The position numbers were made by a program, and so were the translations under genes. The notes under the pieces are model-generated. The model made no database searches. It saw only the letters and a list, made by a program, of their open reading frames with translations, and was not told the DNA's origin. This document shows positions 45,208-54,765 of a DNA stretch of 64,000 bases, piece after piece (position 1 is the first letter of the stretch; every line of letters begins with the position of its first letter). The DNA comes from Candidatus Magasanikbacteria bacterium CG10_big_fil_rev_8_21_14_0_10_36_32 (GTDB lineage: Bacteria > Patescibacteriota > Patescibacteriia > Magasanikbacterales > GWA2-37-8): NCBI GenBank assembly GCA_002778465.1, contig PFBV01000003.1:2397-66396 (forward strand), read 5' to 3'.

Positions 45208-45236
45208 TTGACAAAACCTTCAAAATGTGCTATAAT
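45208..45236 (+). promoter_or_regulatory. consensus sigma70 promoter TTGACA-17-TATAAT (TG-extended) for small-protein family member A, followed by ~140-nt leader with twin mini-hairpins
   Basis: TTGACAaaaccttcaaaatgtgcTATAAT. The leader contains gcggtaaaacccgc and ccggtaaaaccgg, then the SD AAAGGAGA. Confidence 0.55.
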
Positions 45237-50767: not shown

Positions 50768-51961
50768 TTAATGAAATAATTTCACCACCGTGTAAATTGA
50801 AGCGGCTGAAAAAAACAATAAAACCGGAATGGCTACCAGCCAAAAATTATTCAATCCATAACGCGAGGCGTCTAAATCGCCTTTTTTTCTTGCCTTATAA
50901 GCGATTGCCACCAATAACACAGCTTCAATTCCAATAAATAAACCGCCGATAACATCCAAAATAGAAACAAAACTTCTAAAACCAAATAAAAATAAAATTA
51001 CCGGCACGGATATCACGGCAAACTCCGCCAAATACCTATTTATCTTATGATCCCAAATTAAAGACTGTTTTAAAGCAATGCCAATCCCCAAAAATCCTGT
51101 GCCCATTGCCAAAGCGGCAAATAAATTAGCGCACGCATATACCCAACCGCCAAATTGATGATTTAATCCGACAGTGGCAATTTCCGTGGTGTTCACACCC
51201 AAAAAACCAACTACCGCCAATACGAATAATAAATAAACACCAATTGGAATCAATCCGCCAATAATAATCGCTTTACGAAAATGCTTTTGGCTGCCCGGCA
51301 ACAAAGCATGCGCCTCGGCAATCGCCGGTGTGGCATTTAACGCAAATAAAATCACGCCGTATGGTAAAAATAATTTTGTTAAATCAGTATAAAAAAAATT
51401 TGCCGGATGAAATTTATCCAATAAAAATAAACTCAAACCGACAATCAACCCGATAACAACCATGCTTAATATTTTTTCAACATTTTTTACCGTTTGCAAT
51501 CCACGCCAAATTAAAATACTGCCGATTGACCAAAAACAAATACTCCACCACACTTTATCTCCGCCAAACATAGCCGACAAAGCTTCCCCTTCTCCAATAA
51601 TATAAGCCAACAAAGCGCCATAGCCTGTTAAAATTATAATTAATGACATCAATCTTTTTGCCCAACAACCCAAATAACGACCGGCAAAACCGGGAATCTG
51701 AAAATTTTCTTTAGTTCTAACGGCAATTTCACCAATAATCAAATTCAACATCATTACTACCAAACCCAAAACCAATATATATATCAAACCAATAATCAAA
51801 CCGACCTGCGCCACCACATAAGGCAAACCTAAAATACCGGCGCCGATAGTCATTCCTGTAATCATAAAAACCGCTTCACTCACCGTGGCGGTTTGTTTAT
51901 ATACACCTTGATGTAAAACTACGGATTTTTCATTTTTCAACATACTTAAATAGTATAACAC
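50768..51961 (-). CDS. amino acid permease (hydroxy/aromatic amino acid permease HAAAP-like, 11 TM)
   Basis: The N-terminal segment SEAVFMITGMTIGAGILGLPYVVAQ is typical of the TnaT/TyrP/SdaC-type permeases. 397 aa, polytopic. Confidence 0.55.
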   Translation of the reverse strand: MLYYLSMLKNEKSVVLHQGVYKQTATVSEAVFMITGMTIGAGILGLPYVVAQVGLIIGLIYILVLGLVVMMLNLIIGEIAVRTKENFQIPGFAGRYLGCWAKRLMSLIIILTGYGALLAYIIGEGEALSAMFGGDKVWWSICFWSIGSILIWRGLQTVKNVEKILSMVVIGLIVGLSLFLLDKFHPANFFYTDLTKLFLPYGVILFALNATPAIAEAHALLPGSQKHFRKAIIIGGLIPIGVYLLFVLAVVGFLGVNTTEIATVGLNHQFGGWVYACANLFAALAMGTGFLGIGIALKQSLIWDHKINRYLAEFAVISVPVILFLFGFRSFVSILDVIGGLFIGIEAVLLVAIAYKARKKGDLDASRYGLNNFWLVAIPVLLFFSAASIYTVVKLFH

Positions 51962-51975
51962 ATTTTTAAATTAAT

Positions 51976-52010
51976 AAAAAACTCCCGACAAAAGTTGGGA
52001 GTATTTTTTT
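51976..52010 (-). terminator. bidirectional intrinsic terminator downstream of the Cys-rich small-protein pair, followed by a partial 29-nt direct repeat copy (52028-52056)
   Basis: Hairpin actcccgac-aaaa-gttgggagt with a T-run. The sequence aaagttgggagtatttttttaacaaaaaa is repeated. Confidence 0.5.
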
Positions 52011-52061
52011 AACAAAAAAGAATAGTAAAGTTGGGAGTATTTTTTTAACAAAAAAAATAGT

Positions 52062-52301
52062 TCAGGATCTAGCGAACAATTCCTTGAAATCACGATAAGC
52101 GGACCAAAGACCGAACAAACAAATAAAAATTACGCAAATCGCGACAATGCACGCAGACACTGTGCCCAAACAAGCAATATAAATAGCTAAACCGCACATC
52201 ACGGACATTCCCACCCACACCAAGCAAGTAATTATGAAAACGATGATCCTGACGCATGACGACTTGTTACAACAATTATTTTTAATTTGATTCATCGTCA
52301 T
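52062..52301 (-). CDS. Cys-rich small 2-TM membrane protein (79 aa, 11 Cys), translationally coupled to upstream ORF
   Basis: MTMNQIKNNCCNKSSCVRIIVFIITCLVWVGMSVMCGLAIYIACLGTVSACIVAICVIFICLFGLW. Its start overlaps the stop of 52282-52602. Confidence 0.45.
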   Translation of the reverse strand: MTMNQIKNNCCNKSSCVRIIVFIITCLVWVGMSVMCGLAIYIACLGTVSACIVAICVIFICLFGLWSAYRDFKELFARS

Positions 52302-52602
52302 TTTCTCTCATTTCCTGTTCAATTTTTTTCAACAAAGCTTCCCAGCCTTCCATTTTCAGAATAATTAAACGGCTGTTTATAATTTGGAAATTTTTATAAA
52401 ACCGAAACGTACCATAAGCATTAAGCGTGCAACACACGCCACAACATACCATTTCAAACCAGTCGTTGGAATTATAATTATTCAAACACCACCGAAAACA
52501 AGCGGCCGCGACAACAGTGCAAAAAATCATTCCCGCTACGACACCAACTTGACATAAATGAAGGGACTTTCTAATTTTTTCCGTCCTTTCATCTTTTTCC
52601 AT
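52282..52602 (-). CDS. Cys-rich small membrane protein (106 aa, 10 Cys)
   Basis: LHLCQVGVVAGMIFCTVVAAACFRWC ... MVCCGVCCTLNAYG. SD GAAAGGAA lies upstream, with a promoter repeat at 52665-52712. Confidence 0.45.
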   Translation of the reverse strand: MEKDERTEKIRKSLHLCQVGVVAGMIFCTVVAAACFRWCLNNYNSNDWFEMVCCGVCCTLNAYGTFRFYKNFQIINSRLIILKMEGWEALLKKIEQEMRENDDESN

Positions 52603-52664
52603 TTTGTTCCTTTCTGCTTTAAAAATATCTGCTTTGCCGTCTGTAAATATCCTATTTCCTTTTG

Positions 52665-52712
52665 TTGTTAATGAACTGCTTTATATATAACAAATTTAAA
52701 CAAAAAAGTCAA
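52665..52712 (-). promoter_or_regulatory. 48-nt promoter-containing direct repeat, copy 1 (TTGACT-17-TATATA on the minus strand), driving the Cys-rich small-protein pair
   Basis: Identical to 53556-53603 apart from the flanks. The reverse complement is TTGACTtttttgtttaaatttgtTATATAtaaagcagttcattaacaa. Confidence 0.5.
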
Positions 52713-52721
52713 TGTTAAAAT

Positions 52722-52752
52722 AAAAAAAAAGACCCTGCCGAAAGGCGGGGTC
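52722..52752 (-). terminator. intrinsic terminator downstream of the CPBP protease gene
   Basis: gaccctgcc-gaaa-ggcggggtc, followed by a T9 run on the minus strand. Confidence 0.55.
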
Positions 52753-52775
52753 AAAAGAACAAATTAACAAAAAAA

Positions 52776-53387
52776 TTAACCGATTTTATCGTCATCCGTA
52801 AACGACAAATCGGACGATTTAATATCAAATGACACATTCATATCCAAAGCCGCTTGGGCCAGCTTTGCAAACTCTTCATTTTGCATGATTTTGTCCGTTT
52901 GGGACTTTTCCAATATGTAATCATGAATCTCACAAGAAAAATTCCAAATTACGTGCAACGCCAGCGGTATCCAAATTGTCTGCAATAAAATTCCCACCAC
53001 ACAACTAATAATTCCAAATAACAACATCGGTATCATCAGGGCAAACTTATAAATTATTTTTTTCTCATCTTTAAAGTTATACCAATGCAAACCGCTGAAT
53101 ATGACACTGGAAATAATAATGGCAATTCCGGCGACAACGGTTAACTCGGAAAAGAAAAAAATAATCGGCAAACGAAAAACCATTTCTTCGCCAGTGGGTC
53201 CAATAACGCAAGCTTCCATGCCGTCATTCAACCAATACATCTTGAAAAAATTTTTATAAAACCATTTGGCATTGCCGCATTTCTTGCTATATAATTTATT
53301 TGCCGCCGCCCTAACCAATGCCGCAAAAATTATAATCACAATAAGAATTAAAAACGGTGGTAAAAATTCAATAAATCTTTCCAACAT
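52776..53387 (-). CDS. CPBP-family intramembrane glutamic endopeptidase (CAAX protease/Abi-type bacteriocin-immunity-like)
   Basis: Motif 1 EExxxR (GEEMVFRLPI), motif 2 FxxxH (FSGLHWYN), motif 3 HxxxN (HVIWNF). 6 TM. Confidence 0.7.
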   Translation of the reverse strand: MLERFIEFLPPFLILIVIIIFAALVRAAANKLYSKKCGNAKWFYKNFFKMYWLNDGMEACVIGPTGEEMVFRLPIIFFFSELTVVAGIAIIISSVIFSGLHWYNFKDEKKIIYKFALMIPMLLFGIISCVVGILLQTIWIPLALHVIWNFSCEIHDYILEKSQTDKIMQNEEFAKLAQAALDMNVSFDIKSSDLSFTDDDKIG

Positions 53388-53555
53388 TTTTTATTCTCCT
53401 GTTGGCCGCAACCTTACGTTTTAGCTTGTTTGTCGTACGGAAACAATTTTTTTCCATTTCATCCGACAGACAAAGTATACTATCGGCCCTTGTACCAACG
53501 CTTTTTTCTTTTTTGGATTACCACATCCTATTGCCTTTTTCCGTCAACTGACGAA

Positions 53556-53603
53556 TTGTTAATGAACTGCTTTATATATAACAAATTTAAACAAAAAAGT
53601 CAA
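53556..53603 (-). promoter_or_regulatory. 48-nt promoter-containing direct repeat, copy 2, driving the CPBP protease gene via a ~165-nt leader
   Basis: Same 48-nt sequence as 52665-52712. The leader is GC-richer and potentially structured. SD AGGAGA lies 8 nt before the ATG at 53387. Confidence 0.5.
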
Positions 53604-53616
53604 CTATTAACAAGAG

Positions 53617-53645
53617 TTGACTTCAATAACAATTTAATATATAAT
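53617..53645 (+). promoter_or_regulatory. consensus sigma70 promoter TTGACT-17-TATAAT for tRNA-Val, head-to-head with the CPBP promoter
   Basis: TTGACTtcaataacaatttaataTATAAT. The tRNA 5-prime end lies 14 nt downstream. The -35 boxes of the two divergent promoters form the inverted repeat aagtcaac..gttgactt. Confidence 0.55.
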
Positions 53646-53658
53646 GATTTTACTTTAA

Positions 53659-53732
53659 GCACGCCTAGCTCAGTTGGTTAGAGCACCTCGTTTACACCGA
53701 GGGGGTCAGGGGTTCAAATCCCTTGGCGTGCA
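53659..53732 (+). tRNA. tRNA-Val (anticodon TAC), CCA not encoded
   Basis: GCACGCCTAGCTCAGTTGGTTAGAGCACCTCGTTTACACCGAGGGGGTCAGGGGTTCAAATCCCTTGGCGTGCA: canonical cloverleaf, anticodon loop TTTACAC. Confidence 0.85.
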
Positions 53733-53738
53733 CATTTA

Positions 53739-53770
53739 AAAATGAGCCAATATTTTGGCTCATTTTTAAA
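53739..53770 (+). terminator. intrinsic terminator after tRNA-Val
   Basis: Perfect hairpin atgagccaa-tatt-ttggctcat followed by ttttaaatttt. Confidence 0.6.
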
Positions 53771-53781
53771 TTTTATAAGTT

Positions 53782-54765
53782 CTATTTTTTTAAATAACTA
53801 TCAATTGAATTGCCGCCTTCCCTGTGTCCTTCGGAAATATATATTCTTATTTCATCTCCCATGCGCAAAATCTTGGGATCGGTGCCTTTATCAAAAATAT
53901 TTTTATCCACTATTTTCCAATCTAATCCGTTTTCTGAAATCGCTTCATAAATTCCACTCCAACTCCACCTTCTCCACTGTTTCAAATCTTCCCACGGAGA
54001 AAATCCAGCGACGAAATACATATGATACAAATTTCCTTCTTTGATCACGGCACAACTACCCGCTCTCTGCATATATTTCAACGGTTCTTGCTCATAATCT
54101 ATTCTAACACCTGTGTCCAATACCCAATTCAAACCGTCTTCAGAGTATAAACTTCTAATTCGCCACACTGGCCAAGTCCAATTTTCATTTTTGTATTTTT
54201 CAAAATCAGATGGCACCAACCCGCCTTCATCAAAATACATTCTATATCCTTTATCCAATTTTATAATTTCAAAATGCGCGATTGTTTTTATACCTTCTAA
54301 TTCTCCTTGTCCTGTTACAAGCAAAGGCATTTTTTCAACTTCAAAATTCAATCCATCGTCTGAAATTGCCATCATTAACGCTTGCTGTTTATCATTTTCA
54401 AATCCTCTCTGAAAATAAAGCCTAATTTTTCCATCATCTTCAAGAATAGCCGCCGGCATAGCCGCCCGATGAATTCTTTCTCCTTCAAATTCCCAATTTA
54501 ACCCGTTACAAGATTTATAGCTGTAAATATTCATCAAACCGTCACTTCCCGTTCCAGTACCATGCGAATACAATCTAAAACAATTATTGCTCAATTGGAT
54601 TATATCCGGATTTTGATTGGTATCCTGTTGATTTTCAATCACTGTGCCTTCCAAATTCCATCTTGAAAAACCGGCTAACGGATTATATTCAATCTTCCAA
54701 AATAAAACTAATAATAAAAAAACAAATAAAATTAAAATGATAAATATCAATAAAATTTTTTTCAT
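53782..54765 (-). CDS. membrane-anchored five-bladed beta-propeller glycoside-hydrolase-like protein (GH43/GH32/GH130-type fold)
   Basis: Recurrent blade motifs DGKIRLYF, DDGLNF, EDGLNW, ENGLDW. N-terminal TM. 327 aa. Confidence 0.4.
   Translation of the reverse strand: MKKILLIFIILILFVFLLLVLFWKIEYNPLAGFSRWNLEGTVIENQQDTNQNPDIIQLSNNCFRLYSHGTGTGSDGLMNIYSYKSCNGLNWEFEGERIHRAAMPAAILEDDGKIRLYFQRGFENDKQQALMMAISDDGLNFEVEKMPLLVTGQGELEGIKTIAHFEIIKLDKGYRMYFDEGGLVPSDFEKYKNENWTWPVWRIRSLYSEDGLNWVLDTGVRIDYEQEPLKYMQRAGSCAVIKEGNLYHMYFVAGFSPWEDLKQWRRWSWSGIYEAISENGLDWKIVDKNIFDKGTDPKILRMGDEIRIYISEGHREGGNSIDSYLKK

Follow-up and report, generated by a model that had tools for sequence, protein, structure and literature searches.

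A perfect 48-nt direct repeat as the probable core of a promoter-leader module shared by two small transcription units beside tRNA-Val in a Candidatus Magasanikbacteria genome

The question raised by this locus is why the same 48 nt should occur, without a single difference, ahead of two neighboring sets of genes. It lies within a 64,000-nt stretch of contig PFBV01000003.1 (referred to here as the window, or 64-kb window) from a Candidatus Magasanikbacteria bacterium. One copy (53556-53603) precedes a CPBP-type protease gene, the other (52665-52712) an overlapping pair of genes for small membrane proteins, called here geneX and geneZ; a third gene, geneY, survives only as a remnant. An initial annotation of this DNA placed the repeat at these two positions and before both sets of genes, and it was right on both counts: the repeat is a promoter-like module heading two transcription units. 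These are the only two copies in the window, which contains no further matches at up to three mismatches; there were none in 100 shuffles. Searching with a profile of six module instances (nhmmer) likewise gave just these two, with the next best match at E=0.77. The features of the locus are as follows.

51974..52055, minus strand: predicted terminator of the geneX-geneZ unit (hairpin 51981-52002 and U-run; RNA fold)
52062..52301, minus strand: geneZ, 79 aa, two hydrophobic helices, 20-nt overlap with geneX (BLASTP, tblastn, gene order)
52282..52602, minus strand: geneX, 106 aa (COU29_00945), SD AAGGA (homologs P0005 and P0006)
52665..52712, minus strand: module copy 1 (downstream slot), 47/48 identical to L007:907-954, nhmmer E=9.6e-18; -35 at 52712-52707, -10 at 52689-52684, predicted start site ~52677; on its 3' side a vestigial SD (AAAAGGAAATAGG), then a ~75-nt unstructured leader
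52722..52752, minus strand: predicted intrinsic terminator of the CPBP unit, GACCCCGCC-TTTC-GGCAGGGTC then U9 (RNA fold -14.4 kcal/mol, z -3.9)
52776..53387, minus strand: CPBP/Rce1-like intramembrane glutamic protease, 203 aa (COU29_00950, PIT88345.1; Pfam PF02517)
53421..53526, minus strand: decayed 5' remnant of geneY (tblastn, blastn, alignment, translations)
53541..53555, minus strand: 15-nt palindromic insertion (TTCGTCAGTTGACGG), in copy 2 only, breaking the similarity to copy 1 (pairwise alignment)
53556..53603, minus strand: module copy 2 (upstream slot), exact repeat, aligned with the L007 and L008 copies, nhmmer E=7.6e-16; -35 TTGACT 53603-53598, 17-nt spacer, TG at -15/-14, -10 TATATA 53580-53575, predicted start site ~53568; 3' of the -10, a conserved initial transcribed block AAGCAGTTCATTAACAA
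53617..53733, plus strand: divergent tRNA-Val(TAC) with its promoter (promoter 53617-53645, tRNA 53659-53733)

The similarity between the copies exceeds the 48 nt of exact identity. In pairwise alignment it extends about 6 nt further upstream and, past the insertion in copy 2, resumes downstream in AAAAGG[A/C]AATAGGAT.

Read on the minus strand, the repeat gives TTGACT-17-(TGT)TATATA, the -35 and -10 arrangement originally proposed, to which can be added a TG two bases before the -10 (with one base between), making the extended -10 form TGnTATATA. The rest of the 48-mer, beyond the promoter, consists of some 17 presumably transcribed bases. All of the elements expected of a sigma-70 extended -10 promoter (-35, spacer of 16-18 nt, TGn, -10, distance to the gene) are present and are kept in six copies. 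The best-conserved promoter columns across these copies are the TG, the TATA and the -35, and the variable base between TG and TATA is the “n” of TGnTATA. The module thus resembles the TGnTATAAT class, to which further strong promoters of the window belong, in its -35, spacer and TG and in its leader, which is A/T-rich and unstructured and has a strong SD; the conservation of the module tracks these elements. It differs in the -10 itself, which is TATATA or TATAAA without the usual T at -7 (4/6 against TATAAT). It also differs from plain extended -10 promoters in that conservation as strong as that of the promoter continues for ~17 nt past the -10, which core-promoter function alone does not account for. 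Promoter activity and start sites are predictions from consensus and position.

Neither leader appears to have meaningful structure. That of copy 1 folds no better than shuffled sequences; that of copy 2 has z=-2.0, but its sequence is pseudogene remnant. In Rfam only the tRNA passes, and the leaders have no match at E<=1 save for terminator-driven noise. An inverted repeat around the -10, TTGTTA-N17-TAACAA, was considered as an operator and set aside, since the TGnTATA element accounts for its left arm, whose variable base has no matching change in the right one. The density of TTGTTA peaks at the two module regions, largely owing to the repeat itself.

The open reading frames have the coordinates and lengths first given for them (203, 106, and 79 aa, the last two overlapping). 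The protease assignment also stands. The 203-aa protein matches PF02517 (Rce1-like) over residues 59-150 (E=1.5e-12; 48.1 bits, gathering score 22.4) and has the three defining motifs in hydrophobic helices: EExxxR as E67-E68-M-V-F-R72, FxxxH as F97-SGL-H101, and HxxxN as H145-VIW-N149. Residues E67, E68, R72, H101, H145, and N149 are invariant in three homologs (alignment A1). It differs from typical PF02517 members in its minimal size and its charged C-terminal tail, and it belongs to no curated NCBIfam equivalog (MroQ, 21.6 bits against a cut-off of 270; MrtJ, 17.9 against 75). A word-indexed search of 5.8 billion proteins found just two relatives, P0003 (48%) and P0004 (46%), and scanning genome_contigs with the alignment gave no confirmed ones. 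The AF2 model, from a three-sequence alignment, has a pLDDT of 44.6, too low for the model to be of use, the profile has no PDB relative at E<0.3, and a literature search on CPBP in CPR found nothing. The gene has an SD (AGGAG) 8 nt upstream of it, and its start block, CAACAGGAGAATAAAAAATG, is common to the gene start in the related contig L007; that of L006 is the same plus one inserted A. As had been proposed, the gene has a terminator of its own, the hairpin with U9 listed above; L006 and L007 have a homologous hairpin 3' of CPBP, and L008 has one 3' of geneY.

The relatives of both small open reading frames establish them as genuine, conserved genes. The word-indexed search found only geneX itself and nothing for geneZ, whose sequence as read here is absent from the protein database searched. 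To reveal geneX homologs an exhaustive HMMER search was needed; this found full-length ones in P0005 (E=1.6e-12) and P0006 (E=7e-7). GeneZ matches the gene downstream of P0006 in L009 (BLASTP E=4e-6, beginning MTMNQIK vs. MAMNQVK; tblastn E=8e-6), and the order geneX-geneZ is the same in L008 and L009. These relatives answer the concern, raised in the initial annotation, that the pair might be spurious and without conservation. Scanning metagenome_contigs and viral_contigs with the geneX alignment confirmed no relatives.

The description of the two proteins as rich in cysteine needs qualification. The counts first given (10 in 106 aa and 11 in 79 aa) are too high, the actual ones being 8/106 and 9/79. 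This is still around 10-15 times the window proteome mean (0.78%), with vicinal Cys pairs in or beside helices, but the homologs of geneX have three Cys each, without such pairs, and only one Cys is invariant in the family. To judge from these alignments, Cys-richness is specific to the window lineage and not a family property. The suggested structure prediction, an AF2 model with pLDDT 82 and helices at 2-42, 48-84, and 87-105, shows geneX as a membrane protein made of a helical hairpin and, at the C terminus, an amphipathic helix; the hairpin is generic, and no Foldseek match in PDB had an E-value under 0.38. With 79-106 aa, two hydrophobic helices and charged termini, geneX and geneZ are like small two-TM helical-hairpin proteins such as holins, 2TM defense effectors and MerF-type carriers. 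However, matches to these are sub-threshold (holin PHROGs E 0.09-0.7; PADLOC 2TM E 0.05), Pfam and PDB gave nothing, and no membership is claimed. No Pfam, NCBIfam, PADLOC, or PHROG family was found for geneX, geneY, or geneZ. No similarity suggestive of paralogy was seen between CPBP and geneX or between geneX and geneZ, and a 16-nt exact match, AAATTTTTATAAAACC, encoding FYKNF in both CPBP and geneX, was treated as chance. Downstream of the pair, a 36-nt tandem duplication of the terminator 5' arm and an A/T tract has left 29-nt exact copies at 51991-52019 and 52027-52055; the repeat noted earlier thus exists, with its second copy one base off from the 52028-52056 first given.

Four related contigs, each of at most 2 kb, were available for comparison (L006-L009; GCA_041643015.1, GCA_040961665.1, GCA_040961595.1, ERZ27247707), so that “conserved” here means three or four lineages. 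L007 and L008 have the module at both equivalent positions, placed as in the window relative to the start codons. Over about 61 nt, identity to the window is 58/61 for the downstream copy of L007 (L007b), 47/60 for L007a, 49/61 for L008b, and 51/61 for L008a. Overall the module is 75-98% identical to the window copy, compared with 95% for the tRNA, 63-69% for coding DNA, and just 38-48% for the neighboring proteins in L007 and L008; for the CPBP homologs the figure is 46-48%. Within genomes the pattern is different: the two copies match at 37/48 positions in L007 and 35/48 in L008, against 48/48 in the window, while the window sequence matches the L007 downstream copy at all but one of 48. In L006 the upstream copy is degenerate (nhmmer E=0.43), so constraint on that position is not universal, and the high window-L007 identity of the downstream copy could come partly from horizontal exchange rather than selection. 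The five contigs shown, of ten, from the source population (L001-L005) equal the window at every overlapping base across the compared 4.1 kb and so carry no information on substitution pattern. A module core pattern had no matches in genome_contigs and metagenome_contigs; these also miss the module of the window itself, and with the module present in the window and L007 this indicates that the collections lack the relevant genomes.

What lies in the first slot is not constant. It is a CPBP gene in the window, L006 and L007, but in L008 it is geneY, an unrelated gene for a 134-aa two-TM protein. In L009, geneX-geneZ follow another small gene with no promoter or module between. The proposed partnership of CPBP with the small proteins is therefore not a fixed one, geneX-geneZ having no adjacent CPBP in L008 or L009; the search of other genomes suggested for such pairs did find the linkage, but inconsistently. 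The slot's 3' flank and terminator are homologous whichever of CPBP and geneY occupies it. The window retains part of geneY. Between module and CPBP gene, a stretch of about 105 nt, most of the leader of about 165-180 nt, reads ATG-TGG-TAA (a stop replacing CAA), then a frameshift, then ...VQGPIVYFVCRMKWKKIVSVRQTS-stop. This remnant is found by tblastn with the L008 geneY (E=1.5e-4, 50% over 26 aa), and in blastn window positions 53680-53437 align with L008 519-766 (73.9% over 253 nt, E=2e-35). In hhalign, geneY has a probability of 22% against the geneX family and 4% against CPBP; the L009 upstream gene has 1% against the geneX family, and nothing was found between it and the L008 geneY.

The linkage of the locus to tRNA-Val is kept in L006, L007, and L008. 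The tRNA promoter is TTGACT-17-TATAAT, with 13 nt between its -35 and that of module copy 2. The inverted repeat formed by these two boxes, put forward as a possible shared regulator site, arises simply because the back-to-back promoters carry one and the same hexamer on opposite strands. In L006 and L008 the adjacent tRNA-Val contains a GIY-YIG endonuclease cassette. Between these two contigs, identity is 96% across 346 nt on the GIY-YIG/tRNA side and falls towards the slot. The downstream promoter of L006 has a MITE-like insert with ~20-nt inverted ends within its -35.

Several other explanations were weighed. If an ~80-nt promoter segment had been copied once, neutrally and recently, its identity would reflect youth and carry no regulatory meaning. 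Perfect identity with abrupt edges, other local slippage and duplication (the 36-nt tandem duplication at 51991-52055 and the insertion in copy 2), and a locus clearly rearranged, per the geneY remnant, would fit this, but the module outconserves coding DNA, and L007 and L008 already carry two copies at the same positions next to much-diverged proteins. The architecture is therefore old, with only the perfect identity recent, and the neutral reading is unlikely. Similarly, of the two meanings originally proposed for the identical promoters, shared regulation is strengthened by this recurrence and conservation, while recent duplication fits less well than recent homogenization of two old copies, which differ from each other in L007 and L008. 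A further option, given a rather low probability, is that the repeats serve mainly as recombination substrates, with modules, terminator and upstream flank acting as homology arms by which an 891-bp unit is swapped or looped out, perhaps stimulated by GIY-YIG. The differing slot contents between homologous flanks, three different 5' junctions before the shared CPBP start block, and the decay of L006/L008 identity towards the slot, like a co-conversion gradient, are in keeping with it. On the other hand, the high L006/L008 identity may simply reflect mobility of the GIY-YIG cassette, the window locus has no recombinase or endonuclease, its 5' junction is inside geneY and not at a repeat edge, and none of the five source-population contigs shown, of ten, is without CPBP. 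Least probable by far is the idea that the 48-mer has nothing to do with promoters and is a MITE fragment or a dispersed repeat, the latter of which the initial annotation had allowed for. CPR genomes do carry small mobile repeats, and the insert in the L006 downstream promoter is one MITE-like example, but this repeat has two copies only in 64 kb, no match in viral_contigs (IMG/VR) even as a degenerate pattern, no terminal inverted repeats or target-site duplications, and a position relative to start codons that is kept in other genomes.

The initial annotation favored a membrane peptide or immunity-like module, in which the CPBP/Abi protein would process the Cys-rich small proteins, or protect against them, and identical promoters would co-induce all of them. 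Conserved promoter boxes shared among several operons are known from class II bacteriocin loci, in which CPBP/Abi genes recur (e.g., PMC9298176, PMC4517551). The catalytic motifs here are intact, and the best NCBIfam neighbor, sub-threshold, is the peptide-processing protease MroQ. The locus is like the pln, blp, and sil regulons in having a repeated near-identical promoter element before adjacent short operons encoding CPBP and small hydrophobic proteins. What the operons of those regulons share, though, is two 9-bp direct repeats that lie upstream of the -35 and are recognized by a LytTR regulator, whereas at this locus it is the core promoter and the start of the transcript that are conserved. 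The Pfam content of the surrounding 10 kb on either side includes no exporter (ABC/C39 peptidase), histidine kinase or LytTR regulator, and among the ORFs of at least 30 aa in 51500-54300 there is no leader-type peptide that could be a precursor. GeneX and geneZ have charged N-termini and two hydrophobic helices with no double-glycine or signal leader, and so resemble resident membrane proteins, not exported peptides. With the three unassigned gene families, Cys-richness that is not conserved, and a CPBP gene that is replaced in L008 and missing beside the pair in L009, a bacteriocin or immunity role is unlikely.

The explanation preferred here, and judged probable as a whole, is that a locus-specific promoter-leader module of ~60 nt has the 48-mer as its core, that the two units are co-regulated, and that the upstream copy has been homogenized. 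The module would comprise the extended -10 sigma-70-type promoter, the ~17 transcribed bases and an ancestral A-rich Shine-Dalgarno stretch (CAAAAGGAGAATA), and would head each of two adjacent, separately terminated units beside tRNA-Val in a few Magasanikbacteria-like CPR genomes: a variable slot (CPBP or geneY), then geneX with the overlapping geneZ, both predicted to encode small helical-hairpin membrane proteins. Most of geneY would have been displaced, in the window lineage, by a CPBP gene that has its own SD, so that the ~105 nt of decayed 5' end remained as leader. Later, a downstream-type module may have overwritten the upstream copy, by gene conversion or re-duplication, giving the perfect 48-nt identity, which on the alignments is most likely the recent homogenization of an older, selected promoter-leader element. 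Given equivalent promoters and a common start region for transcription, both units would then be expressed and regulated in concert. As a shared operator or site of RNA-level control, the best candidate is the conserved transcribed block. However, no regulator is encoded within 10 kb on either side, the leader has no RNA structure or Rfam family, and in L009 geneX directly follows another gene with no module between.

A more elaborate version, considered improbable, adds two things: the invariant transcribed block (AGYTCATTWACAA) would act as operator, or as RNA target, for a hypothetical CPR-specific regulator coupling the slot gene to geneX-geneZ, and the paired modules would be homology arms near a GIY-YIG-targeted tRNA-Val, with endonuclease-triggered co-conversion exchanging the slot gene from one lineage to another. 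If this were true, the locus would be a site of gene exchange, small and flanked by promoters, in streamlined genomes. Real as the feature is, it looks like two units of an ordinary, lineage-specific membrane-protein locus sharing their regulation in an ordinary way, not like a new type of system.

Very little is known of gene regulation in the CPR/Patescibacteria, and a non-coding element at 75-98% identity amid proteins at 38-48% is a concrete candidate cis-regulatory site. If the shared-regulation reading is true, mutating the module segment AGTTCATTAACAA should alter expression or regulation. As a replaceable occupant of its slot, the CPBP gene argues against calling every CPBP beside small hydrophobic ORFs a bacteriocin or immunity module. 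Two apparent orphan ORFs become small real protein families, one of them missing from the protein database searched, and the module also offers a usable promoter and leader for CPR organisms.

The 48-nt module, a repeat that combines a predicted minus-strand promoter with the beginning of a leader, occurs exactly twice in the 64-kb window. The exact duplication, the ORFs, the tRNA-Val and its promoter (TTGACT-17-TATAAT) are all located as in the initial annotation, and the locus has two annotated genes (locus tags COU29_00945 and COU29_00950). The features are:

52062-52301, minus strand: geneZ, 79-aa ORF
52282-52602, minus strand: geneX, 106-aa ORF
52665-52712, minus strand: module copy 1, the downstream copy
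52776-53387, minus strand: CPBP, 203-aa ORF
53556-53603, minus strand: module copy 2, the upstream copy

No further matches with three or fewer mismatches are present in the window, nor were any found in shuffled sequence; a module profile search of the window gave nothing beyond the two copies at E<0.7, and no copies were found in IMG/VR. In pairwise alignment the likeness of the copies exceeds 48 nt, by ~6 nt upstream and by a downstream AAAAGG[A/C]AATAGGAT, which in copy 2 follows a 15-nt palindromic insertion. Near-consensus promoters at 45208(+), 48821(+), 49327(+) and 35809(-) have a common extended pattern, TTGACAAAA..(T)TAAAATATGnTATAAT, suggesting a strong-promoter architecture common in this genome and distinct from the module.

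Comparative evidence comes from four related contigs of 0.9-1.6 kb each (L006-L009). Conservation over the six module copies is highest at the -35, at the TG and TATA that belong to an extended -10 (TGnTATATA), and in a block AG(T/C)TCATT(A/T)ACAA, which is followed 3' by an A-rich stretch and then the Shine-Dalgarno (SD) sequence. The canonical T at -7 is absent. Since TGnTATAAT is also used by other strong promoters of the window, the original reading of the repeat as a promoter, here of the extended -10 type, is well founded on sequence grounds. Module copies are 78-95% identical to the window copy over ~61 nt, compared to 63-69% for coding DNA and 95% for the tRNA. In L007, tRNA-Val is followed by one copy of the module, a CPBP gene and a terminator, and then by another module copy, after which a further gene begins; this downstream copy matches the window 48-mer at 47/48 positions (58/61 with the SD stretch), while the CPBP proteins are just 46% identical. 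In L008, the tRNA-Val side is divergent from a module copy, which is followed by geneY (a 134-aa two-TM gene), a terminator, a second module copy, geneX and geneZ. The upstream copy in L006 is degenerate. Judging from these comparisons, the module is old and conserved.

Four to five tandem 7-nt units, ATTGYTA, abut the -35 of the downstream copy on its 5' side in three contigs (L006:1100-1146, L007:866-906, L008:1118-1160). This possible UP-like or regulator-binding array is absent from the window, where only ~8 nt separate the terminator U-run from the -35. L006 also has a MITE-like insert of ~140 nt (L006:1145-1290) within the -35 of its downstream copy, with terminal inverted repeats of ~20 nt (CCCCGTAGAGAAATTTTGAA / CCCCGTAGAAGAATTTTGAA) and a TTGA duplication; neither the window nor the other loci yielded a copy of it.

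The first slot, the gene position between the module copies, is variable. The 165 nt from module copy 2 to the CPBP SD are collinear with the 5' end of the intact L008 geneY (window 53680-53437 vs. L008 519-766: 73.9% over 253 nt, E=2e-35; tblastn E=1.5e-4). This remnant reads MW-stop, frameshift, ...VQGPIVYFVCRMKWKKIVSVRQTS-stop, and is not a leader with its own function. The CPBP start block CAACAGGAGAATAAAAAATG is common to the window and L007, with one inserted A in the L006 version, and the upstream junctions of these three genes are of three kinds. With either CPBP or geneY as slot gene, the flank at the stop codon and the terminator show homology. Together, the collinearity and decay of geneY, the common start block with three junctions, and the homologous 3' flank indicate that a CPBP gene replaced geneY within a conserved frame. 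In L009 another small gene stands before geneX, with no intervening promoter, so CPBP is not an obligate neighbor of geneX-geneZ.

The assignment of the 203-aa protein as a CPBP/Rce1-like protease (Pfam E=1.5e-12) with EExxxR, FxxxH and HxxxN motifs holds, as does its own, predicted, terminator. Both detectable relatives (46-48% identical) keep all of the catalytic residues E, R, H and N. The protein is an active-looking intramembrane protease; it reached none of the curated equivalogs, with MroQ and MrtJ far under cut-offs.

GeneX seemed an orphan in a word-indexed protein search; an exhaustive HMMER search recovered two full-length homologs of the same size, P0005 in L008 (101 aa, E=1.6e-12) and P0006 in L009 (103 aa, E=7e-7). 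The protein database searched yielded no geneZ, but the ORF aligns with the gene directly downstream of P0006 (BLASTP E=4e-6, tblastn E=8e-6; MTMNQIK vs. MAMNQVK), with the conserved Cys located in the first helix. Its start overlaps the geneX stop codon as ATGA in L008 and L009; in the window the two genes overlap by 20 nt. With homologs in relatives, the small ORFs are real genes rather than spurious ones. No family in Pfam, NCBIfam, PADLOC or PHROG matches geneX, geneY or geneZ. The AlphaFold model of geneX is a helical hairpin plus C-terminal helix (pLDDT 82); no comparison with solved structures was informative. Cys residues number 8 in geneX and 9 in geneZ, not 10 and 11 as first counted, or ~10-15x the window proteome mean (0.78%). 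Cys-richness is not the defining trait it was taken for: one Cys is invariant in the geneX family, and each homolog has 3.

A 156-nt stretch of 91% identity (L008:1455-1610 vs. L009:518-673; the 5' part of geneX is ~67%) takes in the 3' ~80 nt of geneX and the 5' ~75 nt of geneZ, with SD GGAAGGAGG, the ATGA overlap and MRFFLP...; either conservation of a coupling region or a recent exchange could account for it. An N-terminal geneZ extension of ~50 aa is missing in the window's 79-aa version. In the geneX leader (52603-52664, minus strand) the heptamer AAAGCAG occurs three times, once within the module, and a vestigial SD (AAAAGGAAATAGG) is followed by ATA in the geneX frame, 16 codons upstream of the ATG. 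This suggests that the geneX start earlier lay there and was moved by an insertion of ~50 nt that L007 and L008 lack.

There are two units, each with its own terminator and preceded by the same promoter-like module. Transcription would start near 52677 and 53568, giving a ~75-nt unstructured leader for geneX-geneZ and one of ~180 nt, the pseudogene remnant, for CPBP. The same promoter and first ~17 transcribed bases would put both units under equal expression control, in keeping with the shared regulation originally proposed. Core-promoter function leaves the conserved transcribed block unexplained; if the module has an operator or RNA-level site, this block is the leading candidate. The leader regions contain no Rfam family or stable structure, and no regulator genes are found within ±10 kb. 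Past geneZ, the partial 29-nt terminator repeat reported earlier does exist, at 51991-52019 and 52027-52055 rather than where first placed; it belongs to a 36-nt tandem duplication (51991-52055) in which the geneX-geneZ terminator has its 5' arm and A/T tract copied, so that a version lacking the hairpin lies upstream of the functional one (51981-52002). The functional hairpin also reads as a plus-strand terminator.

The tRNA-Val is intact in the window, without a GIY-YIG gene. In L008 (113-545) the resident tRNA-Val is split, with its first 22 nt at ~545-520 (minus strand) and its last ~20 nt at ~132-113 (see also L006:1-300, L007:1-142). Between the two parts lie a GC hairpin, a gene for a GIY-YIG endonuclease (216-458, Pfam E=5.7e-12) and a different tRNA-Val(TAC) that is complete (151-225); this insert looks like a homing-endonuclease cassette with its own replacement tRNA, recalling T4 SegB in a tRNA cluster (PMC2330249). 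In L007 a GIY-YIG 3' end and tRNA-Val are present in inverted orientation with respect to the slot; in L006, no tRNA is detected by ARAGORN.

The identity of the window copies (48/48) is not matched within L007 (37/48) or L008 (35/48), and both are of the L007 downstream type. The exact repeat ends precisely where they begin to diverge: the first base past it is T in the upstream copies of the window and L008, and C in window copy 1, in the downstream copies of L007 and L008, and in the L007 upstream copy as well. The simplest reading is an old promoter pair recently homogenized in the window lineage. Of the recent module duplication suggested earlier, the recency survives as probable homogenization, while the two-copy architecture itself is old; a purely neutral recent duplication, which would account for the perfect match, is contradicted by that architecture in L007 and L008 and is improbable. 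Copy number in the window and conserved position make a common dispersed repeat hardly credible.

Somewhat less probable than neutral duplication is that the paired copies serve in recombination or cassette exchange. On the tRNA/GIY-YIG side, L006 and L008 share 96% identity over 346 nt, and this falls towards slots that hold CPBP and geneY, respectively, but this may reflect only the mobility of the GIY-YIG cassette, and the source-population contigs compared (L001-L005) are all identical to the window wherever they overlap the locus. A bacteriocin or immunity module, the function first suggested from the CPBP gene and its small neighbors, is about equally doubtful: every accessory hallmark is missing at the locus, and CPBP is replaceable. 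The locus is made up of known kinds of element, namely a CPBP protease, a promoter of the extended -10 type that recurs in front of adjacent units, and small membrane proteins specific to the lineage. The most that can be said of geneX and geneZ is that they are two resident helical-hairpin membrane proteins predicted to be expressed together with the CPBP protease.
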